Source: Candidatus Moraniibacteriota bacterium (GTDB taxonomy: Bacteria; Patescibacteriota; Minisyncoccia; Moranbacterales; UBA2206). From it: a DNA stretch of 64,000 bases. The stretch spans positions 10,452 to 74,451 of the forward strand of contig DMWY01000007.1 of assembly GCA_003483065.1 (NCBI GenBank). Direction: 5' to 3'. A program made the position numbers and the translations under genes. This document shows positions 1,970-51,441 of this stretch, in pieces (position 1 is the first letter of the stretch; every line of letters starts with the position of its first letter). The notes below the pieces were generated by a model. It had not been told where the DNA came from, made no database searches, and saw only the letters and a list, made by a program, of their open reading frames with translations.

Positions 1970-2767
1970 TTAAATTAATCTTTTTTTGGCTATTGCTTTT
2001 AGTTCTTCATTGAATTCCGAAATAGCTTTATCCATAATTGGATCGAATTTTTTGTAAATTTTTTTTTCTTTGACAATATTTCCCGCTTCTAGGAGAGTGT
2101 CGAATGTTCCGGCATCCAACCACGCACCAGAGAAAGTACTCACTTCCAACTCTCCTTTTTCCAGATAAAAATTATGCAGTGATGTTATTTCTTTTTCTCC
2201 TCTCTCGGATGGAATCACGTTCTTAGCTGCATCTGATACTCGATTGTCAAAAATATAAAGTCCTGGAATAGCATAATCACTTAACCATTCACTTGGTTTT
2301 TCTATAATTTTCACCGCCTTATTATTCTCATCAAATTTTACCACGCCATAACGCTCCGGATCAGGAACTTTTTTAGCAAAAATTTTTCCGCCAGACTTGA
2401 AATTCTTAATATCCTCAGAAAAATCATCTTCGAAAATATTGTCCCCTAAAATCATCGTCACATTGCCATTGTCAATGAAATCTTCGCCTAAAACAAAAGC
2501 CTCCGTCAAGCCTTTGGGCAATTTTTGCACCTTAAAATCAATGCGAATGTCATATTTTTCAAAAATTGAACCCAAAAGATTCAAATATTGCCCACTGTGT
2601 TCCGGCGCTACAATAATCAAAATGTCTTTTATACCAGCCTTAATGAGCGTATTAAGTGGATAAAAAATCATCTGCCTGTCATAGACCGGCAAAAGTTGCT
2701 TCGAAGTTGTCGCGGTGAGCGGAAAAAGCCTTGTCGCTGTTCCACCCGAGAGAATAATGCCTTTCAT
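1970..2767 (-). CDS. rmlA: Glucose-1-phosphate thymidylyltransferase RmlA
   Basis: MKGIILSGGTATRLFPLTATTSKQLLPVYDRQMIFYPL matches the RmlA N-terminal signature. The internal ATG at 2765-2767 is the likely start; the longer ORF to 2842 adds a non-conserved leader. Confidence 0.85.
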   Translation of the reverse strand: MKGIILSGGTATRLFPLTATTSKQLLPVYDRQMIFYPLNTLIKAGIKDILIIVAPEHSGQYLNLLGSIFEKYDIRIDFKVQKLPKGLTEAFVLGEDFIDNGNVTMILGDNIFEDDFSEDIKNFKSGGKIFAKKVPDPERYGVVKFDENNKAVKIIEKPSEWLSDYAIPGLYIFDNRVSDAAKNVIPSERGEKEITSLHNFYLEKGELEVSTFSGAWLDAGTFDTLLEAGNIVKEKKIYKKFDPIMDKAISEFNEELKAIAKKRLI

Positions 2768-2838
2768 AAATTTATTTTCATCTATAAAACAAATACTTTT
2801 AGGAAGCGGGGAGATGGAAATATCCATCTCCCCTAATT

Positions 2839-3057
2839 TCAATGTGCAAAAGAGGCCATAATCCCATCAAGATCTTTTTCAATTTCTTGCCACTCAGTCT
2901 GTGTTAAATTTATAAGCCACGGGTCATCCTGATAACGAATAAAAGGTATAATCCTTTTTTCTCGTTGTTCATGGATGTATTGAGGCGTTACATCTTCTGA
3001 TTTAACACCATCTTCTATGGCAATAAGGTCCTTGAATAGTTTTTTCAGATTCGACAT
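2839..3057 (-). CDS. Hypothetical small protein (72 aa)
   Basis: Intact ORF between glyA and rmlA on the same strand; no recognisable motif. Confidence 0.3.
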   Translation of the reverse strand: MSNLKKLFKDLIAIEDGVKSEDVTPQYIHEQREKRIIPFIRYQDDPWLINLTQTEWQEIEKDLDGIMASFAH

Positions 3058-3148
3058 GTGTTTCCTCCTTATATGTTTTTATTATTTTAGTTGATCTGAA
3101 CCTCCTAGAAATATTTGTTTTAAAGAGCAATACGTTAAACGACTTAAA

Positions 3149-11157: not shown

Positions 11158-11613
11158 TCAGTATATTTTCACACTATCCCCTATCTTGAAATTATATTTG
11201 TCCGAAAGTCCGCTGTTTATTTCCAAAACTTTATCCGCTTCAATTTTAGGATTAATTGTTTCTAGTGAATCATGAGAAACATTTTTCGCAATATGGACTA
11301 TTTTTCCTTCGTTTATCCAAAGTATATCTAAATCAACTTGCATATCTTTCATCCAAAAAGAATATTCGCCCTTTTTCCCAAAATCAAAAAGCATTCCTTC
11401 TTTTTCTCTAATTTTCGCTCGACCGCCTAATCCCTGTATTTGCTTTTCGGGTTTTCTTGTTAGTTCTACAAAAAAATTATACCTACCAATCGCAACTATC
11501 TTATATTTACTAAAATAAATAATCCCGAATATTATCGATGCTGATAAAAATATCAATAAAATAATCGCTAATATTTTGCCGATACTTTTGGTTTTTAGAT
11601 TAATTTTTTGCAT
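11158..11613 (-). CDS. DUF192 domain protein
   Basis: N-terminal TM anchor, then EGMLFDF...FWMKDMQVDLDILWI, which matches conserved DUF192 (COG1430) blocks. Confidence 0.7.
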   Translation of the reverse strand: MQKINLKTKSIGKILAIILLIFLSASIIFGIIYFSKYKIVAIGRYNFFVELTRKPEKQIQGLGGRAKIREKEGMLFDFGKKGEYSFWMKDMQVDLDILWINEGKIVHIAKNVSHDSLETINPKIEADKVLEINSGLSDKYNFKIGDSVKIY

Positions 11614-12628
11614 TATCTAATTTAGAAATTTTTCTATTTATAATAAAAATTGAAGCTATCATAATCATTAACACTAAAAGCAAAGTAATTCCCTTGCCAA
11701 TTGCTCGAGTGTTGAGAGCAACGCAAGCGATAATACTTGTAATTATCCAATAGCCTAGGACTATTTTTCGCTGAGACCATCCTAATTCCATTAGCTTATA
11801 GTGTAAATGATTTCGATCAGGGATAAATATTGATTTTTTATTACGAATTCTTTCGCCAATCACCCAGAAAAAATCAATAATTGGAATAGCTAAGACCAGA
11901 AGAGAAGTTGCAATTTTTGTACCAGCAAAAACAGCTAAGACTCCCAGGGAAAAACCCATAAACATCGCCCCCGTTGTACCAGCAATTATTTTAGATGGAT
12001 AAAAATTAAACATCAAAAATCCCAGAATTGTTCCCATTAAAATTGCACACATAATAGCAATGGGTGGCTGATTTACCTCTGAGCGAAAACTCAGAAAAAA
12101 TATTGTAGTCACTGTTATAAAAGTAATGCCACCAGAAAGACCATCGATTCCATCAGCCCAATTAACGGCATTCATAAGTAAGACTAACCAAAAGATAACC
12201 AGGGTAACAGAAAAAACCACGCCCAAACTTGAATCTAATCTCAAAATTCCACCACTTAGCGGATTAGTCACATAATAGATTCTAACTCCCATAATAAAAA
12301 CAAAAACTGAAACAGCGATTTGTCCAAAAAGTTGAATTTTCCAGCGAATTTCTCCAAGATCATCCCAGAAATAAACTAAGAGAAGGATGATATTACTAAT
12401 CAAAAAACCATAAAGTTGAGGAGATATAAACAAATCTCTATTCACAAGAATCGAAAAATCAAAAATCACAATCATTACCAATCCACCCAATCTTGAGATA
12501 TTGCCCCTGTGAATATGGCGCAAACCAACTCTGCCTAACCATTTTATTTCTTTCGTAAAAAGGATAATTCCATAAATTGAAATTACCGTAAGTGTCAGTG
12601 AAATTAGAAACGGAATTAAGTATTTCAT
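11600..12628 (-). CDS. Glycosyltransferase family 4 phospho-sugar transferase (MraY/WecA family)
   Basis: Polytopic membrane protein with NAVNWADGIDGLSGG (the NAxNxxDGxDGL motif of MraY/WecA polyprenyl-phosphate sugar-1-P transferases). It is not in a mur context and sits beside a GT2, so WecA/TagO-like is more likely than MraY. Confidence 0.8.
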   Translation of the reverse strand: MKYLIPFLISLTLTVISIYGIILFTKEIKWLGRVGLRHIHRGNISRLGGLVMIVIFDFSILVNRDLFISPQLYGFLISNIILLLVYFWDDLGEIRWKIQLFGQIAVSVFVFIMGVRIYYVTNPLSGGILRLDSSLGVVFSVTLVIFWLVLLMNAVNWADGIDGLSGGITFITVTTIFFLSFRSEVNQPPIAIMCAILMGTILGFLMFNFYPSKIIAGTTGAMFMGFSLGVLAVFAGTKIATSLLVLAIPIIDFFWVIGERIRNKKSIFIPDRNHLHYKLMELGWSQRKIVLGYWIITSIIACVALNTRAIGKGITLLLVLMIMIASIFIINRKISKLDNAKN

Positions 12629-23695: not shown

Positions 23696-25054
23696 TTAAA
23701 TTTTCTTCCACGGGATACTTTTCCAGGCCGAACTTTGCCGGCAAAGAAGCTCGTCTGATTTTTGTGGCTCGGCCATTATTTCTTCTACCACTTTTTCCAT
23801 TCGCATTCCTTGTGAACCTTTTATCAAAATCAAATCTCCCGACTGAATTATTTCGCGTAATTTTTTCCCAGCGCCCATCGGATCAGAAAAAACAAAAAGT
23901 CTTTCTGGACTGATATTTCTTTTTTTGAGTTCTTCTACGGCAAACTGCATTCTTTCCCCGACTGCAAAGAAAATTCCATCTTTAATTTCCAAAAATTTCT
24001 TGGCCACATCCTTGTGTCCTAACTCCACTTCTTCGCCAAGCTCTAGCATATCCCCCATCACGGCGATTTTTCTAGACGAGTTAATATCTTTCAAAACATC
24101 CAGCGCAGAAATAGCAGAAATAGGAGAAGAATTATACGTATCATCAATTATCGAAGTATTTTTGATGCCGGAAATCAAATTCATTCGGCCAGTCGGCATA
24201 GAAAAATTTTCAAGCGCTCCCGCAATTTCCACTAAATTAAGCTTAAACGCCAAGCCGATAGCAATTGCACTTAACGCCGCATAAATACTATGCTTAGCTA
24301 AAATATTGTTGAGTCGAACTGGAATGCTTGTGCCTTTGTAGTTGAGTTTGAAAGAAAGACCTTTTATTTCTTTGGCGTCACCAAATTGCGCAAAAGAATA
24401 ATTATATAAAACGTCAGTCGCTTGAATTTCTGCCTCCTGCGAAAAACCAAAAGTTAAAAAATTTATATCATCTCTCTTGTTTTGACTGGCTAATTTTTTG
24501 AGCTTTGGATTATCTAAATTTATCGCTGCAAAGCCCTTAGGTGCTAAATTATCCACCAGTGTCCATTTTTCACTAGCAATCTTGTCAATAGTTTTGAAAT
24601 ATTCCAAATGACTGCCGGAAATTTCTGTGATGACTGACGCTTCGCACGGGATAAAACTAGTTAGATATCCAATGTCTCCCGGCCGATCAGCCCCCATTTC
24701 TAAAATCAAAATTTCCGGATACCTCAGAGGCAATATGAAAAAAGCTAGCCACCTAAAAGATACTCCTAGCCATTTCCAAAATGATCTCTCCCCGCTTTCA
24801 GCGCCGATTATCGTGAGTGGCAAACCAATTTCATTGTTATAATTTTTCTCTGTTTTTCTCACGCGAAAATGATTAGAGAGCACTGCATAAATTGCTTCCT
24901 TTGAAGAAGTTTTGCCCACTGACCCGGTAATGCCAATGATCCGCGGTTTATATTTTTTTAGCATCAAAATCGCCATGACACGCAAGGTTTTTTCCAGCAG
25001 TATTATTTTTTTAGATTTATGGTTTTGACTATTCATCTTTTTTTTCTTTATCAT
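23696..25054 (-). CDS. murF: UDP-N-acetylmuramoyl-tripeptide--D-alanyl-D-alanine ligase MurF (short N-terminus)
   Basis: IIGITGSVGKTSSKEAI (Mur ligase P-loop), central and C-terminal Mur ligase domains; end of the dcw cluster. Confidence 0.85.
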   Translation of the reverse strand: MIKKKKMNSQNHKSKKIILLEKTLRVMAILMLKKYKPRIIGITGSVGKTSSKEAIYAVLSNHFRVRKTEKNYNNEIGLPLTIIGAESGERSFWKWLGVSFRWLAFFILPLRYPEILILEMGADRPGDIGYLTSFIPCEASVITEISGSHLEYFKTIDKIASEKWTLVDNLAPKGFAAINLDNPKLKKLASQNKRDDINFLTFGFSQEAEIQATDVLYNYSFAQFGDAKEIKGLSFKLNYKGTSIPVRLNNILAKHSIYAALSAIAIGLAFKLNLVEIAGALENFSMPTGRMNLISGIKNTSIIDDTYNSSPISAISALDVLKDINSSRKIAVMGDMLELGEEVELGHKDVAKKFLEIKDGIFFAVGERMQFAVEELKKRNISPERLFVFSDPMGAGKKLREIIQSGDLILIKGSQGMRMEKVVEEIMAEPQKSDELLCRQSSAWKSIPWKKI

Positions 25055-26906
25055 TCTCTTTTTCCTCTTGTTCTTTTTTATCTCTTATATTATCGATAAA
25101 ATATTCATTTAGTGTGTGTGTTTGGCGAAAAGCATTCAGGTCGGCATCAGTAAATTCTTCTGTCGGTTTGATATTCTTATAATCCAACAAAAATTTCATC
25201 AATTCTCCAAAAGTCGGCGCCGCACTAGATTCTGCCCATTCCACCGTTTTTGGATCATCCATTCGAACGATAATGGTGAATTGTGGATTATCAATTGGAG
25301 CAAATCCGGCAAATGACCCAATATTCTTTCCGTCTTCATAGCCTTTTTTTTCTGTGCTGGCTACTTGGGCGGTACCGGTTTTTCCTCCCACCTTATATCC
25401 CGGAACTCCAGCTCTTTTTCCATGCCCATTAATCACCACACTTTCTAGCATTTGCGAAACTTGATTGGCAGTTGATTGAGAAATAACTTTTCTAATTTCT
25501 TGAGGTGCAATTTCTTCTACTCTTCCATCACTATGAATTATTTTGTCTACAATTTGAGGCTTCATCAGAGTTCCGCCGTTGGCAATAGCGTTATAAGCAT
25601 TGGCTAGTTGAATTGGCGTCACCGTTATCCCTTGTCCAAAAGATATCGTGAAAAAATTTATATCCGCTTTCTTGTTTTTTAAGTTAGCGATATTACCAGC
25701 GCTTTCTCCTGGAAGTTCAATACCGGTTGTTTCTCCAAAACCGAATCTTTTTATATAATCCGCAAAATTAGCATTTCCTAAAAGTTTTTCCGCGTGTATC
25801 ACGCCAGTATTTAGTGAATTTTCCAAAACTTGTGTCATCGTTTGTTTGCCATAAGCTTTCAAATCGGAATTTCTCATAGTATATCCCGCTTCTTTCACCG
25901 CACCAGTATCGATGTATGACGTCTGCGGAGAAATTTTTCCATCGTCAATTGCTGAAGCTAATGTGAAAGTTTTGAAAACGCTACCTGATTCATATGCATC
26001 ACTCACTGCGATATTTCTAAAATTTTCCAGCTCGGCATCTTTATAATTATTCGGATCAAAAGAAGGATAGCTGGCAAGGGCAAGAATTTTTCCCGTCGGC
26101 GGATCCATGACTATTATCGTGCCCCTATCGGCTTGGAATTTTTGCACTGCGCTTTTGAGAATTTTTTCTGTTTGATACTGAATAATACGATCGATCGTGA
26201 GAACCAAATCATCTCCGTTTTGTGCATGCGTTAATTCTTTTTTGCCAGTTGGAATCCAACGCCCAGAGTTGTCCTTATTTTGGAAAAGTTTTCCTTCTTG
26301 ACCGATAAGCTCTTTGTCAAAATAATTTTCAATGCCATAGCGTCCACCAAAGGTTTCCCCTCTCCAACCCACAAAACCTAAAACTTGCGCAGACAATTCC
26401 CCTCCGGGATAATAACGGAAACTTTCGTCTGATAAATGCACTCCTTCCAGTTTTAAATTATTTAAATTTACTATTTCTTCATCACTCAAACGATGTTTCA
26501 AAACTTCATACATGTCATCTGCTTTCCCAAGCTTTTCTCGAAGTTCTGTTTCATCTAGTCCTAATGTTCGGGATAAAACTTCCGCTACATTTTTTGGATC
26601 ATCCATTTCTCGCGGAACAGCAAAAGCCAGTTTAGTACTCTTATTCACCGCGACAGGATAGTCCCCATCCTTATCTCTCAAAAATATTTCTCCGCGTTCT
26701 GGAATCAAATTGGAAAAAATAGAATGCTGTCCCTGGGCTAACGCCGTATAATAATCACGAGAAAGTATTTGTAAATTATAGAGCCGAAAAATTATCGAGA
26801 AAGCAAAAATAGAAATCAGTAAAAATAATATATAGATTCTCGAATCGGAATATTTTTTTATTTTACATTTTCCACTTCTCGAATCTTTAGAAACTATATT
26901 TGCCAT
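25029..26906 (-). CDS. ftsI: Peptidoglycan D,D-transpeptidase FtsI / PBP2
   Basis: SxxK (SGSVFKTF), an SxN-like motif and KTGTA (VGGKTGTAQ); N-terminal TM and PBP dimerisation domain. Confidence 0.9.
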   Translation of the reverse strand: MANIVSKDSRSGKCKIKKYSDSRIYILFLLISIFAFSIIFRLYNLQILSRDYYTALAQGQHSIFSNLIPERGEIFLRDKDGDYPVAVNKSTKLAFAVPREMDDPKNVAEVLSRTLGLDETELREKLGKADDMYEVLKHRLSDEEIVNLNNLKLEGVHLSDESFRYYPGGELSAQVLGFVGWRGETFGGRYGIENYFDKELIGQEGKLFQNKDNSGRWIPTGKKELTHAQNGDDLVLTIDRIIQYQTEKILKSAVQKFQADRGTIIVMDPPTGKILALASYPSFDPNNYKDAELENFRNIAVSDAYESGSVFKTFTLASAIDDGKISPQTSYIDTGAVKEAGYTMRNSDLKAYGKQTMTQVLENSLNTGVIHAEKLLGNANFADYIKRFGFGETTGIELPGESAGNIANLKNKKADINFFTISFGQGITVTPIQLANAYNAIANGGTLMKPQIVDKIIHSDGRVEEIAPQEIRKVISQSTANQVSQMLESVVINGHGKRAGVPGYKVGGKTGTAQVASTEKKGYEDGKNIGSFAGFAPIDNPQFTIIVRMDDPKTVEWAESSAAPTFGELMKFLLDYKNIKPTEEFTDADLNAFRQTHTLNEYFIDNIRDKKEQEEKENDKEKKDE

Positions 26907-26910
26907 AATA

Positions 26911-27327
26911 TTATTTCATTGCTACCGGACCCTTGAGACTTACGAAAGTCGAACCTTTAGAACTGACTAGATTCAAATCTTCGGCCGCTTTTTCGATATT
27001 TTGCATTGATTTCAATTCTACTTCCTGAATTTTGTTTTTTTCATTGTCGGCTTTGAGTTTTTTGATCTGATTTTCAATGTCTCTAATTTCATAACCCTTG
27101 GTCGCCAAGTCATTAACTTGGTAGAGATAAAAGGAACCAAACATGAACACCATAAAAACCAAAAGTACCATCACTGATTTCGGACTAAATGTCACACTGC
27201 CTCGGCAATTTTGGGAAACAGCTCGTTTTGCCATCGCATTTTCTCGCATGCTAAAAACCGAGCAATTCAATGATGCGCCTCCTATTCTCTTGCGAGCATT
27301 TCTATTGATGGTTAAAACTCTCGACAT
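26911..27327 (-). CDS. ftsL: Cell division protein FtsL-like
   Basis: Single TM (VMVLLVFMVFMFGSFYLY) then a coiled coil, positioned between rsmH and ftsI. Start is uncertain; internal Mets at 27249 and 27234 are possible. Confidence 0.55.
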   Translation of the reverse strand: MSRVLTINRNARKRIGGASLNCSVFSMRENAMAKRAVSQNCRGSVTFSPKSVMVLLVFMVFMFGSFYLYQVNDLATKGYEIRDIENQIKKLKADNEKNKIQEVELKSMQNIEKAAEDLNLVSSKGSTFVSLKGPVAMK

Positions 27328-27374
27328 TAAATTTCAGTCCCCCTGAAAATTAATATTTAATTGTTTATTTGTTT

Positions 27375-28289
27375 TTACGATTTTTCACACACTCGAAGTT
27401 TGGCGCTTCTTGATTTTGGATTATCGCTAACTTCCAAATCAGTTGGCGCGATTGGCTTTCTCGTGATGATTGCAACCTTCGGTTTCTTTCCACAAGCACA
27501 CTGCGGAAAGTCCGGTGGGCAAATGCATCCCCTAGCATTTTCCCGAAATATATTCTTAACTATTCTATCTTCTAATGAATGAAACGAAATTATCGCAAGC
27601 CTCCCTCCTAAATTCAATCTTTCAATTGCTTGCGGGATAAACTTTTCCAAATTCGCAAGTTCCTGATTAACTTCAATTCGCAGAGCCTGAAAAGTTTTGG
27701 TGGCCAAATTCATTTTGGTGTGTCTGAATCTTTCCGGAATGGCTTTTTGCACAATCCCCGCCAATTCCTTGGTCGTTTCTATTTTCTTCTCTTTTCTATA
27801 TTCAATAATTCTCTTAGTAATAATTTTCCAAAATTTTTCTTCGCCATAATCTCTGATTATTCTTTCCAATTCTCTTTGTTCATATTCATTGACTATTTCT
27901 TTCGCTGAAACTTCTTGACTTTCAGAAAGTCGCATGTCCAATTGTTCATCTTCCTGAAAACTCATTCCTTTGCCGACAAGTTGATCGCTCGACCAACCTA
28001 GATCAGCTAAAATTGCATCAACTTTTTCTATTTTCAAATCCTCTAAAATATTTTCTAAATTCTCAAAATTATCATTAACCAAAACTGCTCTCTCATTATT
28101 TTTCAAATCTGATTCTTTAATTGCTTTTTCATCCGCGTCAATCCCGATTAATTTTCCTTTTTCAATTATTTTCAAAATTTCTTTCGAATGACCGCCACCG
28201 CCAAAGGTAGCATCAACCACGACAGAATCATTTTTTAAATTCAAGCTTTCAATTGTCTCTTTTAGTAAAACTGATTTATGAATACTCAT
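27375..28289 (-). CDS. rsmH: 16S rRNA (cytosine1402-N4)-methyltransferase RsmH (MraW)
   Basis: HKSVLLKETIESL...VVDATFGGGGHS. Confidence 0.9.
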   Translation of the reverse strand: MSIHKSVLLKETIESLNLKNDSVVVDATFGGGGHSKEILKIIEKGKLIGIDADEKAIKESDLKNNERAVLVNDNFENLENILEDLKIEKVDAILADLGWSSDQLVGKGMSFQEDEQLDMRLSESQEVSAKEIVNEYEQRELERIIRDYGEEKFWKIITKRIIEYRKEKKIETTKELAGIVQKAIPERFRHTKMNLATKTFQALRIEVNQELANLEKFIPQAIERLNLGGRLAIISFHSLEDRIVKNIFRENARGCICPPDFPQCACGKKPKVAIITRKPIAPTDLEVSDNPKSRSAKLRVCEKS

Positions 28290-30525: not shown

Positions 30526-30620
30526 AGCAACGAGATAGTCGGGACAAATTCCAGTGGAAAAGTTTCAAGCAATTGAAACTACCGATATATCTGACCTCGG
30601 CGGAGAGCCGGGGTTTTATG
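30526..30620 (+). ncRNA. Candidate small RNA (~95 nt) between a plus-strand promoter and an intrinsic terminator
   Basis: TTGACA (30492-30497), 16 nt, TATACT (30514-30519); then a 7-bp stem cctcggc/gccgggg (30595-30613) followed by TTTTATGTTTTT; no ORF between them. Class unknown. Confidence 0.25.
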
Positions 30621-31161
30621 TTTTTATAACCAATAATCCTTTTTTCTCCAATTTGGCATAATATTTAAATATTCTATCAATATTCTTTTTATCAAAATAA
30701 GATCGAGTGAGCCCAGCTACCATATCAGCCAATCTCACGCCAGCGCATTGTTCATCATTAACAGATCTAAGCTTTTTGGTTGTTATATTTTTTTCTCTTA
30801 AAATTTTCTTTATTTTTCTTTCATACCATTTTGGTTTTTTTCCATCTATAAAAATATTTTTGATATTCTTTTCTACTATCATATGCGTCAGACATTCTTC
30901 AAGTTTAATTTGTGGATTAACAGGATTTTTCACAACTGCCACTTTTGCTGAAAAATCAAGCTTCAGGGTTTCTTTTATAAATCCCTCTTTAATTTTCCAA
31001 GGAGTATTTTTCCAATGGAATTTATCAAGCCTTAAATTACTTTCAATTTCTTGTATCTTTTTTTCTACATTTTTATAATTTCTAACTTCTATATAAACCA
31101 AAGCGAATGTTGAATTATCTACTATCTTGTGAATACCTGATTCATCGATAAAAATCATCAT
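30616..31161 (-). CDS. DUF3800 domain protein
   Basis: Starts MMIFIDESG, with DEQCAGVRLADMVAG further in, as in DUF3800. Confidence 0.65.
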   Translation of the reverse strand: MMIFIDESGIHKIVDNSTFALVYIEVRNYKNVEKKIQEIESNLRLDKFHWKNTPWKIKEGFIKETLKLDFSAKVAVVKNPVNPQIKLEECLTHMIVEKNIKNIFIDGKKPKWYERKIKKILREKNITTKKLRSVNDEQCAGVRLADMVAGLTRSYFDKKNIDRIFKYYAKLEKKGLLVIKT

Positions 31162-42454: not shown

Positions 42455-42751
42455 ATGTTTTATACTTATGTATTAAGAGGTATAAAAAATAAAAGATTAT
42501 ATGCTGGAATAACGAATGATTTACGACGCCGTTTCAAAGAGCATAATGAAAAAAGGGGTGGTGCATATACAAGAATAAACGCGCCATTTGATTTAATATT
42601 TTATGAAGCATACATTTACAGAGAAGATGCTGAGAAAGCAGAGTTGTTTTTTAAAAGCGGATATGGCAGAGAAGTATTACGGGATAAATTGAAACATTAT
42701 TTTATGTTAAACCCTCATCGGCAATCCGCCGAAGAGGCGGGTGGGGAGTAG
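42455..42751 (+). CDS. GIY-YIG nuclease family protein (second copy of the UPF0213-type)
   Basis: MFYTYVLRGIKNKRLYAGITNDLRRRFKEHN; the 3' end overlaps the first 10 nt of the tRNA-Gln. Confidence 0.75.
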   Translation: MFYTYVLRGIKNKRLYAGITNDLRRRFKEHNEKRGGAYTRINAPFDLIFYEAYIYREDAEKAELFFKSGYGREVLRDKLKHYFMLNPHRQSAEEAGGE

Positions 42752-42813
42752 CCAAGTGGTAAGGCAGGGGCCTTTGAAGCCCCCACGCGAAGGTTCGAAT
42801 CCTTCCTCCCCAA
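42742..42813 (+). tRNA. tRNA-Gln (anticodon UUG)
   Basis: Folded by hand: acceptor TGGGGAG/CTCCCCA (7 bp), D-arm GCC..GGC, anticodon stem GGGGC/GCCCC with loop CUUUGAA, T-arm GAAGG TTCGAAT CCTTC, discriminator A, no encoded CCA. Confidence 0.85.
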
Positions 42814-42848
42814 CTTTGTGCAAAATTTAAGCGAAAAATTGCTTACTT

Positions 42849-42880
42849 AAAAAATAGCTTTTATTAGCTATTTTTTGTTT
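42849..42880. terminator. Weak intrinsic terminator after the tRNA
   Basis: aaaaaatagct tttatt agctatttttt. Confidence 0.35.
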
Positions 42881-42965
42881 TTAGTTAGTCCCCTTTTGCC
42901 TAAAAAACTTGAATAAAACTTTGCTTAGTGATATTATAGCATTATATAAAATCACTTAATTCCAT

Positions 42966-43997
42966 ATGAAAAAAAATACAAAAAATACAAAAAATAACAA
43001 TGATTCTGGTGAAATAATTATCTACGCAGGCGCCGATGGTGAAACCAAGATTGAAGTGCAGATGAAAGATGAAACTGTTTGGCTTTCACAAAAGCAGATG
43101 GCTGAGCTTTTTGATTGCAGCGTGGATAATGTAAGTTTGCACATGAAAAATATCTTTAGAGATGGCGAATTAAACGAAAATTCAGTTACCGAGGAATACT
43201 CGACAACTGCTTCTGACGGCAAAGATTATCTTGTCAAACACTATAATTTGGACGCAATAATTTCTATTGGATATAGAATAAACTCATTGCGTGGCACGCA
43301 ATTTCGCATTTGGGCTACGCAAAAATTACGGGAATATATTGTGAAAGGTTTTGTGATGGATGATGAGCGCCTAAAGGAAAGTGGCGGAGGGAAATATTGG
43401 CATGAACTTCTTGATCGCATTCGCGATATTCGCAGTAGTGAAAAAGTCCTGTATCGTCAGGTGCTTGATTTGTACGCCACAAGCCTCGATTACAATCCTA
43501 GAGCGTTAGAATCTATAAAATTTTTCAAAATCGTGCAAAATAAACTTCATTATGCCGCACATGGACACACAGCTGCCGAGGTCATAGTTAAGAGAGCTAA
43601 TGCTGGTAAGCCTTTTATGGGGTTGTTGAGTTTTTCAGATGGCGGTGTAAGTAAAAAAGATATTGTTATTGCAAAGAATTACCTTGATGAAAAAGAGTTA
43701 AAAGTGTTGAATAATATCGTTTCCGCCTTTTTTGATTTGGCTGAAGTTAGGGCAATGGATCACGAGCCGACTTATATGAAGGATTGGATTGTCCGTCTCG
43801 ATAAATTGATTAGTGTTTTTGATAAAAAAGTTCTTACAGAAGCCGGCTCGGTGAGTCATGTTGAGGCGATTAAAAAAGCAGAAAACGAATACAGAAAATT
43901 TCAGGCTAAAACTCTCTCTCCAGTCGAAAAAGCGTATTTGGAAAATATTAAATTATTGGAGAAAAAGGTTAAGGGGAAAATAAAAGATAAGAATTGA
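42966..43997 (+). CDS. RhuM family virulence/DNA-binding protein
   Basis: IIYAGADGETKIEVQMKDETVWLSQKQMAELF...SIGYRINSLRGTQFRIWATQKLREYIVKGFVMDDERLK...HYAAHGHTAAEVI matches the RhuM family along its length. Confidence 0.8.
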   Translation: MKKNTKNTKNNNDSGEIIIYAGADGETKIEVQMKDETVWLSQKQMAELFDCSVDNVSLHMKNIFRDGELNENSVTEEYSTTASDGKDYLVKHYNLDAIISIGYRINSLRGTQFRIWATQKLREYIVKGFVMDDERLKESGGGKYWHELLDRIRDIRSSEKVLYRQVLDLYATSLDYNPRALESIKFFKIVQNKLHYAAHGHTAAEVIVKRANAGKPFMGLLSFSDGGVSKKDIVIAKNYLDEKELKVLNNIVSAFFDLAEVRAMDHEPTYMKDWIVRLDKLISVFDKKVLTEAGSVSHVEAIKKAENEYRKFQAKTLSPVEKAYLENIKLLEKKVKGKIKDKN

Positions 43998-47553: not shown

Positions 47554-49853
47554 TTAATTTATAGGATTAAAATCAAAAATCCCCTCTTCAAAATCTTGAT
47601 TTATCCCTTTTTCCCAACGAACAAACATTGGGTCATTGTAGTTCGGAAGTTCCGGACCAAGGGGAAAATCTTTATTCACATAAAAAAGTATTGAATGTTT
47701 TTCCGGTTCGATTTGTTGGCGCACTTCCGAAGCTTTGTATTTTTTTGATTTATCTTCGGAAATTTTTTTGCCAGAAGCTATTTTATAATACTTAATTTCT
47801 CCGGAAACATTTCCCGTAATCATAGACTTTGAAGAAACAATTTTTTCATACGAACCAAAATTTTCCTTGGGCAAATTAGGTAATTCTTTATTCAAGAAAT
47901 TTCGCCAGATAGGAGCGGCCACAAAAATCCCATCCGAACCATATTTCATAGGGGTGTTGTCATTATTACCAACCCAAACTCCAACAGAAATATTAGGCGT
48001 ATATCCAACCGTCCAAGCATCGCGAAATTCTTGAGTTGTCCCGGTTTTTGCCGCCACCGCATAATCCTTAAACGCCAAAGGGGTGTTACTGCCAAAAACA
48101 GCCGATCTAGCAGAATTGTCCGAAAGAATAGAATTTATTTTTCTAGCGACTTCCTTCTCCAAAACATTCTTACTTTCATTGGAATATTCTTTTTTAATAT
48201 TCCCTTTCTGATCAGTAATTTTTTGAATAACTTTGAGTTGGTTTTTTTCTCCGTCATTGGCAAAAACTGAAAAAGCCGAAGTCATTTCAAGCAACTTCAC
48301 TTCTCCACCACCCAAAACAAGCGAGAGTCCAAAGCGACTCCTATTTTCCAATGTGGAAATCCCCAAACTCTCAGCCAAATCTATCGTTTCATTTATTCCG
48401 GCTAGATACAGAGTTTTGACTGCGGGAATATTAAGCGACGATGACAAGGCCTGACGCATAGAAACAAGTCCGCTAAAATTTCCATTATAATTATTTGGTA
48501 TATAATTTTTGCCCGACCCATCTGGACCAAAATTTGTCGGCGCATCCCAAATTAATGTTTCCGGTTGATAACCTTTTTCAAAAGCCTTGGCATAAGCAAA
48601 CGGCTTAAATGACGACCCTGGTTGGCGAGGACTGGTCGCGATATTCACTTGCCCGTCAATTAAAGAATCAAAATAATCTTTGCTTCCCACCATCGCGAGG
48701 AGCTCCCCTGTTTTAGGAGAAATTGCAACTAATGAAGCGTTGTTTGCCCCATATTTCTTGTTGTTTTCCACGCCTTGACGCACTGATTCCTCAGCTCTTC
48801 TTTGCATATCATAATCAAGCGTAGTATAAATTTTCAAACCTTCCGTTTCCAAATCTAAATTTCCATATTCTTTTTCTAAAAATTCCTTAACATAAAAAAC
48901 AAAATGAGGCGCTTGGATATTTTTCTTAGGGGGTATAATTTTTTTCAAAGTATCAATCCCCAACGCTTCTTTAATCATTTTTTCGTCAGCCAACCCAAGA
49001 GTCACTAATTGTCTAAGAATATTTTTTTGCTGAGAAATTAAGGCTGTCTGATTGTTTCCATAAGGAGAATAGAAGGTTGTTGCTTTGGGAAGCGATGCCA
49101 GAAGAGCTGCTTCATCCAAAGCCAAATCAATCGCCCGCTTTCCAAAAAAAGTTTGTGCGGCGGATTCAATGCCATAAGCATTCGAACCATACGGAATTTG
49201 ATTCAGATAGAAGTCCAGGATCTCGTCTTTACTGAATTTTCGCTCCAGCTTTATGGCGATAATCGATTCTAGAATTTTTCTTTTTAGATTTTTATCCCGA
49301 TCCAAAAAAACATTCCTGGCTAATTGTTGGGTAATTGTTGGGTAATTGTTGATCCACCCTGTTGAAATTGTTTGTTTTTTATGTTAACTTCCAATGCCCG
49401 CAAAATTGAAGGGATATCAATTCCTATATGATCGTAGAAAGAAGCATCTTCTGAAACAATTGTTGCAACACGAATGGCATCAGGAATTTGATCGTGTGGC
49501 AAATTTTTCTTATTTTTTTCACCATAAATTTCATAAAGGATATGTTCTCCTGTTCGGTCATAAATAATTGTTGTGCCCTTTGAAACTCTATTTGGCAGTT
49601 CCTTGGCTTTTGGAGTAGCAAAGAAATAGATATAGATAAAAGAAAATAAAAAGATAAGAATTGTAAATAAAAAAATATATAAAAAAAACCTAGAAATCAT
49701 TCCCCTCTTTGATTGAGAAACGCCTTCTTTTTTGGAAAATTTTTCAAGAAAAAAACTAACCTTTTTTGAAAGTTTCTTTATTTCTTTAGTAAGAAAAGCC
49801 TTGTTTTTTGAATTTTTTTTCTTTTTCTCTTCCATTTGCTTAAATCTTAGCAT
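47554..49853 (-). pseudogene. Class A penicillin-binding protein (PBP1A-type transglycosylase/transpeptidase) split by an 11-bp tandem duplication
   Basis: ORF 49320..49853 ends ...EDASFYDHIGIDIPSILRALEVNIKNKQFQQGGSTITQQLPNN* (GT51 motifs 1 and 2). ORF 47554..49305 continues with GT51 motifs (KILESIIAIKLERKFSKDEILDFYLNQIPYG) and a transpeptidase domain (SSFKPF, KTGT). Deleting one 11-nt unit of taattgttggg (49321-49351, 2.8 copies) restores ...TITQQLARNVFLDRDKNLKRKIL..., the expected GT51 sequence. Confidence 0.75.
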
Positions 49854-49874: not shown

Positions 49875-49903
49875 AAAAACCCCGCCGTTTGGCGGGGTTT
49901 TAA
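49875..49903. terminator. Bidirectional intrinsic terminator (ccccgcc gttt ggcgggg)
   Basis: aaaaaccccgccgtttggcggggtttt, lying between rplL and the PBP gene. Confidence 0.65.
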
Positions 49904-49927: not shown

Positions 49928-50338
49928 TTATTTTAGAGTTACAGTTGCACCAGCAGTTTCTAGTTTCTTTTTCATATCTTCTGCTTCGGCTTTTGTTACT
50001 TTTTCTTTGATAACCTTTGGAGCAGCGTCTACCAAATCCTTGGCATCCTTAAGTCCAAGGCCAGTTATTTCACGAACAGCCTTAATTACGTTTATTTTTG
50101 AAGCTCCTGAAGCGGTCACTTCAACATCAAATTCACTCTTTTCTTCAGCCGCAGCAGCTTCTCCGGCAGCAGCTGGAGCAGCTCCCATCATCATTGGAGC
50201 AGCAGCTGATACGCCAAATTTTTCTTCTAAAACCTTCACGAGCTCTGAAAGATCTAAAACACTCATTTTTTCAATTTCGCTAACAAGTGTCTTAAATTTT
50301 TCTGGAACAACTACTTCTTCTTTTTTTTCTTCTGTCAT
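49928..50338 (-). CDS. rplL: 50S ribosomal protein L7/L12
   Basis: N-terminal dimerisation/hinge region with an Ala-rich linker; C-terminal domain [24 protein letters not shown]. Confidence 0.95.
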
Positions 50339-51036: not shown

Positions 51037-51441
51037 TTAGGCGGAAACTTCCTCTTTTTTCACCTCTTCAGCCTTCACCTCTTCTGGTTTGACTTCTTCT
51101 GCTTTAGGTTCTTCAGCTTTAACTTCTTCTGGCTTAGCTTCAGTTGCTGGAACTTCTGCGACTTCTGCAACTTTCACTTCTGGCAACTTAACTGTTCTTT
51201 TCTTGTCCGTTATAACTTTTTTTCTCACCAATAGATTATGCACCGTATCAGAAAGCTGAGCACCCTTAGAAATCCATTCCTTGATTCTCTTCTCTTTCAG
51301 TACAGCTTGCTTTGAATGCGGATCATAAGCACCCAAAATCTCAACATGACGCCCTCCGGGGGCAACTGTTTTATCTTGCAAAACTATCTTATATTGAGCT
51401 TTATTCGTTTTTCCAACTCTGGCTAATCGTATAGTTAACAT
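51037..51441 (-). CDS. rpsP: 30S ribosomal protein S16 with a Lys/Glu/Pro-rich C-terminal extension
   Basis: MLTIRLARVGKTNKAQYKIVLQD...GAYDP; the internal ATG 51439-51441 is the likely start. About 50 extra C-terminal residues of PEEVKAEE repeats. Confidence 0.85.
   Translation of the reverse strand: MLTIRLARVGKTNKAQYKIVLQDKTVAPGGRHVEILGAYDPHSKQAVLKEKRIKEWISKGAQLSDTVHNLLVRKKVITDKKRTVKLPEVKVAEVAEVPATEAKPEEVKAEEPKAEEVKPEEVKAEEVKKEEVSA

Follow-up and report, generated by a model that had tools for sequence, protein, structure and literature searches.

On the minus strand of the window, by which we mean the whole 64,000-nucleotide stretch of DNA analysed here (GC content 35%), from an uncultivated groundwater member of Candidatus Moranbacteria, the ribosomal protein genes rpsP, rplJ and rplL are followed by a gene for a class A penicillin-binding protein (PBP) of the PBP1A family, which is split into two open reading frames (ORFs) by an 11-nt tandem duplication. 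The disrupted gene and its parts are as follows:

47554..49853, minus strand: the whole disrupted class A PBP (PBP1A-family) gene, 762 aa once one 11-nt unit is removed.
49320..49853, minus strand: the ORF of the N-terminal fragment, 177 aa long, or 171 aa if the second ATG is the start, from the ORF list, Pfam and motif reading.
47554..49305, minus strand: the C-terminal fragment ORF, 583 aa, with TTG as its first possible start, from the ORF list, Pfam and motif reading.
49321..49351, minus strand: a perfect tandem array, (ACAATTACCCA) x 2.8, period 11, from direct reading.

The N-terminal ORF holds the cytoplasmic tail, a single transmembrane anchor (the hydrophobic stretch ISRFFLYIFLFTILIFLFSFIYIYFFA at about residues 52-78, judged by eye) and the first two motifs of the GT51 glycosyltransferase domain, motif 1 (E135-D-x-x-F-x-x-H-x-G) and motif 2 (GGSTITQQ), after which it reads LPNN and meets a TAG stop codon (49322..49320, minus strand), ending as ...GGSTITQQLPNN*. 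Along the minus strand from 49380 to 49300 the junction runs ...CAA TTT CAA CAG GGT GGA TCA ACA ATT ACC CAA CAA TTA CCC AAC AAT TAG CCAGGAATGTTTTTTTGGATCGG... The C-terminal ORF holds GT51 motifs 3-5 (RKILE with E192, and KDEILDFYLN), the linker and the transpeptidase domain (S410-S-F-K, S469-L-N and K599-T-G); it has neither a signal peptide nor a transmembrane segment, and no start codon lies 5' of its TTG. No single reading frame carries both PBP domains, the gene being divided into 177 aa and 583 aa. Removal of one 11-nt unit in silico yields a single 762-aa ORF reading ...GGSTITQQLARNVFLDRDKNLKRKILESIIAIKLE..., in which we found no extra stops, frameshifts or indels. The extra unit can be placed, for example, at 49332..49342, and either of two copies could be the new one. 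Tandem Repeats Finder widens the array to 49317..49351 (period 11, 3.2 copies, 95% matches). Among the repeats of the window, it is the sole one whose removal restores a conserved catalytic domain; it is no chance repeat.

Domain and motif comparisons of the repaired protein agree on its identity. The Pfam Transgly profile (PF00912), of which positions 4-75 match the N-terminal and 81-177 the C-terminal fragment, aligns to the repaired protein as one stretch (residues 105-279, profile positions 4-177 of 178, E=4.7e-57), and Transpeptidase (PF00905) covers residues 370-650. The score against TIGR02074, the PBP1A family model, is 512.3 bits and passes the curated cutoff of 508.75. The GT51 motifs stand at 135 (EDASFYDHIG), 166 (GGSTITQQ), 188-192 (RKILE) and 205 (KDEILDFYLN), and those of the transpeptidase at 410 (SSFK), 469 (SLN) and 599 (KTG). 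The repaired junction peptide GGSTITQQLARNVFLDRDKN is the same in all nine closest intact orthologous loci (L003-L007 and L084-L087), and the repaired protein aligns without gaps across the junction to the solved PBP1a structures 4oon (Pseudomonas aeruginosa) and 3udf (Acinetobacter baumannii), with which it shares the transmembrane anchor, GT51 motifs 1-4 (by pattern) and the SxxK, SxN and KTG motifs. The repaired protein is thus predicted to be a bona fide PBP1A-family class A PBP with all catalytic motifs intact. Unlike members of that family, the gene as encoded is broken inside GT51 motif 2, which would make functional membership impossible. The preliminary description had claimed that the two ORFs make up one class A PBP, that they are separated by 2.8 copies of taattgttggg at 49321-49351, and that removing one unit restores the GT51 region, so that the gene would be split by a clean +11 tandem duplication. 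These claims hold: the 762-aa fusion passes the Pfam, TIGR02074 and motif checks, the repeat was recovered both by reading and by Tandem Repeats Finder, and the restored junction matches both the intact loci and the solved structures.

The same split allele recurs widely in public assemblies. The C-terminal fragment is 100% identical to P0005 (KKQ14440.1, KKQ17333.1, HAT73823.1 and HBY11034.1), which carries the NCBI name 'Glycosyl transferase family 51' in Candidatus Moranbacteria bacterium GW2011_GWF2_36_839 and GWF1_36_78 and is also found in two 'MAG TPA' assemblies. The N-terminal fragment, 171 or 177 aa long, was deposited on its own (KKQ14439.1, KKQ17332.1, HAT73824.1 and HBY11033.1), so that the split allele is present in four GenBank metagenome-assembled genomes (MAGs). 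More broadly, the 583-aa fragment lies on 13 public contigs and the 171-aa fragment on 17, the latter from at least 8 samples and several assembly pipelines, including the Logan per-run assemblies SRR6488248, SRR3309375 and SRR29904083 and the ENA assemblies ERZ28564033, ERZ27254812, ERZ27254734 and ERZ909587 (SRR1658471, a groundwater metagenome). A one-residue variant of the N-terminal fragment (P0125) lies on ERZ28563657. Contig DNA was read for eight of these (L001, L002 and L164-L169), and the same 2.8-copy array stood in 8/8; L001, L167 and L168 match the window exactly, and L169 differs by one internal single-nucleotide polymorphism (SNP). Because 17 contigs from at least 8 samples share this allele, which was assembled by several assemblers and sits on haplotypes that differ by SNPs or are mosaic, the duplication is real. 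It is the allele found in every public assembly that contains the strain, and is therefore dominant or fixed where the strain occurs. Our survey of the literature under the run and MAG identifiers returned nothing.

Searches for other copy numbers were likewise negative. An exact look-up of the 0-, 1-, 3- and 4-copy products of this strain, from both possible starts, gave 0 matches in a collection of about 15 billion public proteins. With a 211-aa peptide spanning the junction as query, the best match was 64% identical, in a search that returned only proteins below about 370 aa and missed the orthologues P0124 and P0001; a DNA pattern spanning the junction with a variable gap (1-3 copies) gave 0 matches in metagenome and genome collections that evidently do not contain this species. 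Neither the public assemblies nor the protein look-up revealed copy-number polymorphism among close genomes or populations.

The preliminary description had proposed a comparison with close relatives, which we ran over 163 loci (80 from species-representative genomes, 80 from JGI (Joint Genome Institute) metagenomes, and L001-L003). Only L001 and L002, both of the window's own species, carry the duplication, and all the others have an uninterrupted G-x-S-T-I-T-Q-Q; the intact motif in single copy was counted in 157 of the 163 loci. In the closest intact relative, L003 (92.8% nucleotide identity; protein P0124, 756 aa), the corresponding segment TCAACAATTACCCAACAATTAGC contains two copies of a 9-bp direct repeat, CAACAATTA, at a period of 11 bp, and this 1.8-copy arrangement is the ancestral state of the array. 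The direct repeat is also kept in L007 and L086 and in the distant L056 and L127, and synonymous changes interrupt it in L004, L005, L006, L084, L085 and L087. Among the close loci only L003, L007 and L086 keep it intact, so that as a repeat it is unconserved at the DNA level. These patterns point to slipped-strand mispairing as the origin: AT-rich codons for S-T-I-T-Q-Q-L would have given the ancestor CAACAATTA twice, 11 bp apart, and replication slippage between the two copies would have added one 11-nt unit and with it a +2 change of frame. Slippage between short direct repeats is a textbook route to frameshift pseudogenes. Like other slipped-strand duplications, this one goes back to a short direct repeat, 9 bp at 11-bp spacing in the ancestral sequence, and the mutant has exactly one extra period. 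The only notable point is where it struck: a cell-wall synthase of the candidate phyla radiation (CPR), within an invariant catalytic motif.

Split class A PBP genes were also seen in two other Moranbacteria MAGs, L170 (3001-5557; GCA_053613725.1, on a 1.27-Mb contig) and L171 (3001-5047; ERZ25039515, contig_26151). Each has a GT51 ORF (310 or 320 aa) that overlaps a transpeptidase ORF, and the break is at the glycosyltransferase-transpeptidase linker, not in motif 2; the L171 junction adjoins an A6 run. Either indel errors of long reads or independent, genuine disruptions may account for these splits.

Apart from the disruption itself, evident against the intact orthologues, the gene shows neither relaxed selection nor secondary lesions. 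Aligned by codon with seven intact relatives (746 codons in common), the repaired gene gives a dN/dS between the window and L003 of 0.098 (dN 0.029, dS 0.29), within a background of 0.07-0.13, and changes polarised with six outgroups number 40 synonymous and 26 nonsynonymous on the window branch against 43 and 20 on the L003 branch (Fisher p=0.46). Because dN/dS is at background level and no further damage has accumulated, the lesion is young, much younger than the approximately 7% split from L003; should the gene count as a pseudogene, it became one very recently.

The two catalytic glutamates lie on opposite sides of the frameshift, which leaves E135 with the transmembrane anchor on one side and E192 with the whole transpeptidase domain on the other. 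Translation would stop four codons past GGSTITQQ, and the C-terminal fragment, even if translated from its TTG, would remain in the cytoplasm, having neither anchor nor signal peptide. With E135 parted from E192 and the C-terminal fragment devoid of an export signal, the allele is predicted to be null, and the locus as written would be incapable of making a periplasmic synthase.

Several of the contigs that carry the duplication are mosaic. L002 is 98.0% identical to the window overall and has 62 mismatches, of which 59 fall within the final ~480 bp. Its first 2.6 kb is 99.9% identical, and its tail is ~12% divergent, mostly at synonymous sites (46 synonymous and 13 nonsynonymous changes). L166 has the same divergent tail, with a breakpoint ~110 bp further downstream, together with an 11-SNP patch in rplL; the two tails are identical to each other and end at the same base. 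L165 shows ~80% identity in rpsP and rplJ, rising to 99.8% from rplL on. The mosaic segments, in contig coordinates, are:

2629-3117: L002, the divergent tail.
1245-1347 and 2632-3006: L166, the two mosaic segments.
1-1900: L165, the mosaic segment.

In every mosaic contig the segment around the duplication has the window sequence; specifically, the 1.3-kb segment that bears the duplication is 100% identical across L002, L166 and L165, and the flanks are 12-20% divergent. The donor of the divergent tail is not among the relatives fetched, its best matches there being 91.7% at the nucleotide level (L003) and 97% at the amino acid level (P0124). Either homologous recombination between co-occurring Moranbacteria strains produced these contigs as genuine haplotypes, or the assembler joined strains into chimeras. 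We considered whether L002 proves the lesion to have survived 2% divergence and rejected this, because 59 of the 62 mismatches are confined to the tail and the contig is a mosaic. In that tail, position 2738 of L002 (codon 200 of the C-terminal fragment) reads AGG (Arg), a non-conservative change in the conserved ISPKTGELLAMVGS stretch before the transpeptidase core, where the window and the close orthologues P0001-P0004, P0124 and P0126 have Gly (checked by eye); the Arg change sits on a haplotype that already bears the frameshift.

Taken together, our results suggest that the duplication is probably a recent and genuine slipped-strand frameshift, a null allele that is dominant in one natural population of Moranbacteria (Patescibacteria/CPR) across many samples. 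Among the three readings that the preliminary description had left side by side, we thus favour real inactivation; assembly error is effectively excluded, and an evolved switch gained no positive support. Several points weigh against the reading that we favour. Five replacements on the window branch fall at positions invariant in the other lineages, a weak and non-significant hint of relaxation. The allele stands on several mosaic haplotypes and may therefore be older than dN/dS resolves, or be spreading, neither of which is obviously expected of a purely neutral fresh mutation. The evidence on the allele comes from assemblies, in which a minority intact allele within samples could go unseen, and many of the samples are probably from one aquifer system, so that the populations are not fully independent. 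Finally, the view of the genome is limited to 64 kb, which leaves room elsewhere for a compensating class A PBP or a polymerase of the SEDS family (shape, elongation, division, sporulation).

An alternative that we consider unlikely is population heterogeneity, in which an intact single-copy allele coexists at appreciable frequency and assemblers report the majority path. Microdiversity at the locus is indeed strong, as seen in the tail common to L002 and L166, the rplL patch of L166 and the switch at rplL in L165, and contigs frequently end there. However, no assembly from the at least 8 samples yielded a full-length protein or even a fragment from the intact allele of this strain. The array measures 31-35 bp and has a self-overlap of 20 bp, and contig names indicate k127 and k141 for some assemblies; the array should be unambiguous at these settings and, because it is shorter than either, both alleles should assemble cleanly if abundant.

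It is distinctly improbable that the locus is a reversible ON/OFF contingency switch, in which the array slips often enough to toggle the class A PBP and does so under selection. The copy-number series does alternate the frame (1 and 4 copies in frame; 0, 2 and 3 out of frame), 20 bp of perfect self-homology is available for back-slippage, and the gene is otherwise pristine, its dN/dS of 0.098 being as expected under periodic use; phase variation by tandem-repeat copy number is also documented, for example in promoter repeats of Mycobacterium tuberculosis (PMC12817950). By contrast, the array has just 2.8 units and lies within an invariant catalytic motif, where the repeat is a by-product of codon choice, and six relatives break it by synonymous differences. 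Moreover, all 17 or more contigs of the strain have the same OFF copy number, with no ON allele of the strain in public data, and all relatives are ON with the ancestral count. Reversion by back-slippage is physically possible, with no sign that the site evolved as a switch.

A related idea, which we regard as a long shot, is that selection favours the OFF allele, or that the allele serves as a reversible state, and that recombination has carried it into several strain backgrounds. If the mosaic contigs are true recombinants, the OFF allele has been moved between backgrounds by homologous recombination. If this were true, it would suggest selection for class A PBP shut-off in situ, for example so as to change the wall in an episymbiotic or bloom phase, with slippage as the way back.

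An assembly or sequencing artefact hiding a true single-copy sequence is highly improbable. The source is metagenome-derived, and de Bruijn graphs at small k can be confused by tandem repeats; yet the same duplication appears across different runs, in the GenBank MAGs of two projects, in sets of ENA scaffolds, in contigs labelled k141 and k127 and in the per-run assemblies of Logan, and a scan of 30 other ORFs of the window met no other that looks split (0/30). To our knowledge, 11-nt duplications are not produced by short-read errors. An artefact recurring across projects, runs and assemblers is not credible.

That the gene might function as written, by programmed -1 frameshifting or by association of the two fragments, is the least probable reading and was rejected in both forms, for although an AGGA 8 nt upstream of the TTG might allow translation of the C-terminal fragment and the downstream frame re-encodes a complete TITQQLARN, the stretch from the duplication to the TAG holds no slippery heptamer of the form X XXY YYZ, the C-terminal fragment has no export signal or transmembrane segment, the break parts the two catalytic glutamates inside one compact domain, and no relative is organised in this way.

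Returning to the null allele that we favour, how a cell-wall synthase can be dispensed with is suggested by other bacteria. Pairs of SEDS proteins and class B PBPs polymerise peptidoglycan without class A PBPs, which are dispensable in several bacteria; Bacillus subtilis, for instance, can lack all of them, with RodA/FtsW polymerases present. By analogy, the null allele may be tolerated through SEDS-class B PBP synthesis, the dispensability known from B. subtilis offering a rationale for a dominant null class A PBP. The window does hold a class B PBP gene; compensation by a SEDS-class B PBP pair is assumed here, with no second GT51 or SEDS gene among the 30 other window ORFs of at least 150 aa, the 64 kb being part of the genome. 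The cell-wall genes found by the ORF scan of the window, and a glycosyltransferase gene, are:

25029..26906, minus strand: class B PBP/FtsI-like gene.
27375..28289, minus strand: rsmH.
23696..25054, minus strand: Mur ligase gene.
11600..12628: GT4 (MraY/WecA-type) gene, adjoining a GT2 gene and apart from the dcw-type cluster.

The first three make up a partial dcw-type cluster (23696-28289, minus strand) that runs rsmH, class B PBP and Mur ligase, followed by a UvrD-like helicase gene rather than mraY/ftsW.

A further feature lies immediately upstream of the disrupted gene:

49876..49901, no strand assigned: a GC-rich palindromic hairpin, AAAACCCCGCC-GTTT-GGCGGGGTTTT, between rplL (49928..50338) and the PBP gene, from a consensus scan only.

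It has a perfect 11-bp stem flanked by A4 and T4 and stands 22 nt 5' of the PBP start codon. In its sequence it looks like a terminator or attenuator downstream of the rplJL genes, possibly bidirectional, and given this position the PBP gene may rely for its expression on read-through from the rplJL operon.

Elsewhere in the window, a full-length Rfam DUF3800-II RNA motif lies at 30527-30596 on the plus strand (75.4 bits; gathering threshold 43.2), just upstream of the ORF 30616..31161 on the minus strand. A tRNA-Gln gene (42742-42814) is directly followed by an ORF for a RhuM-family 'virulence protein' (42966..43997; Pfam E=8.7e-106), the 5' end of which holds a perfect 9-bp tandem repeat, AAAAAATAC x 2.9 (42971-42996); the region 42742-43997 possibly forms the border of an integrated element. 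The gene for ribosomal protein S16 (about 51037-51441, minus strand) carries in its 3' part a repeat of 15-bp period, AACTTCTTCTGCTTT x 5.7 with 71% matches (51046-51131), which would imply a repetitive C-terminal extension. The divergent S16 encoded on L165 is 156 aa long, against 134 aa.

These results have consequences for annotation and for the interpretation of CPR genomes. In GenBank, the annotation of the 171/177-aa and the 583-aa entries should state what they are, the two halves of a single frameshifted PBP1A gene. The locus is also a clean and well-replicated demonstration that a frameshift found in a CPR genome assembled from metagenomes can be genuine and no artefact. An environmental Moranbacteria population that lives with a disrupted class A PBP gene fits the view that SEDS-class B PBP machines suffice for building the wall. 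The event itself is of a well-known kind and opens no new mechanism; its interest would rise only if reads held ON/OFF mixtures or if the null allele were spreading by recombination.

Simple sequence repeat (SSR) contingency loci are known in genes of Neisseria and Haemophilus. Such loci are sited in the 5' leader or promoter, whereas the array described here lies in a catalytic motif; its tract is very short, no copy-number polymorphism was observed, and the repeat is unconserved in relatives. In M. tuberculosis, the copy number of promoter tandem repeats varies at 10^-2-10^-3 per chromosome (PMC12817950). The Moranbacteria array resembles both kinds of system in that frame or expression depends on copy number, and in that reversion by slippage is mechanistically possible.

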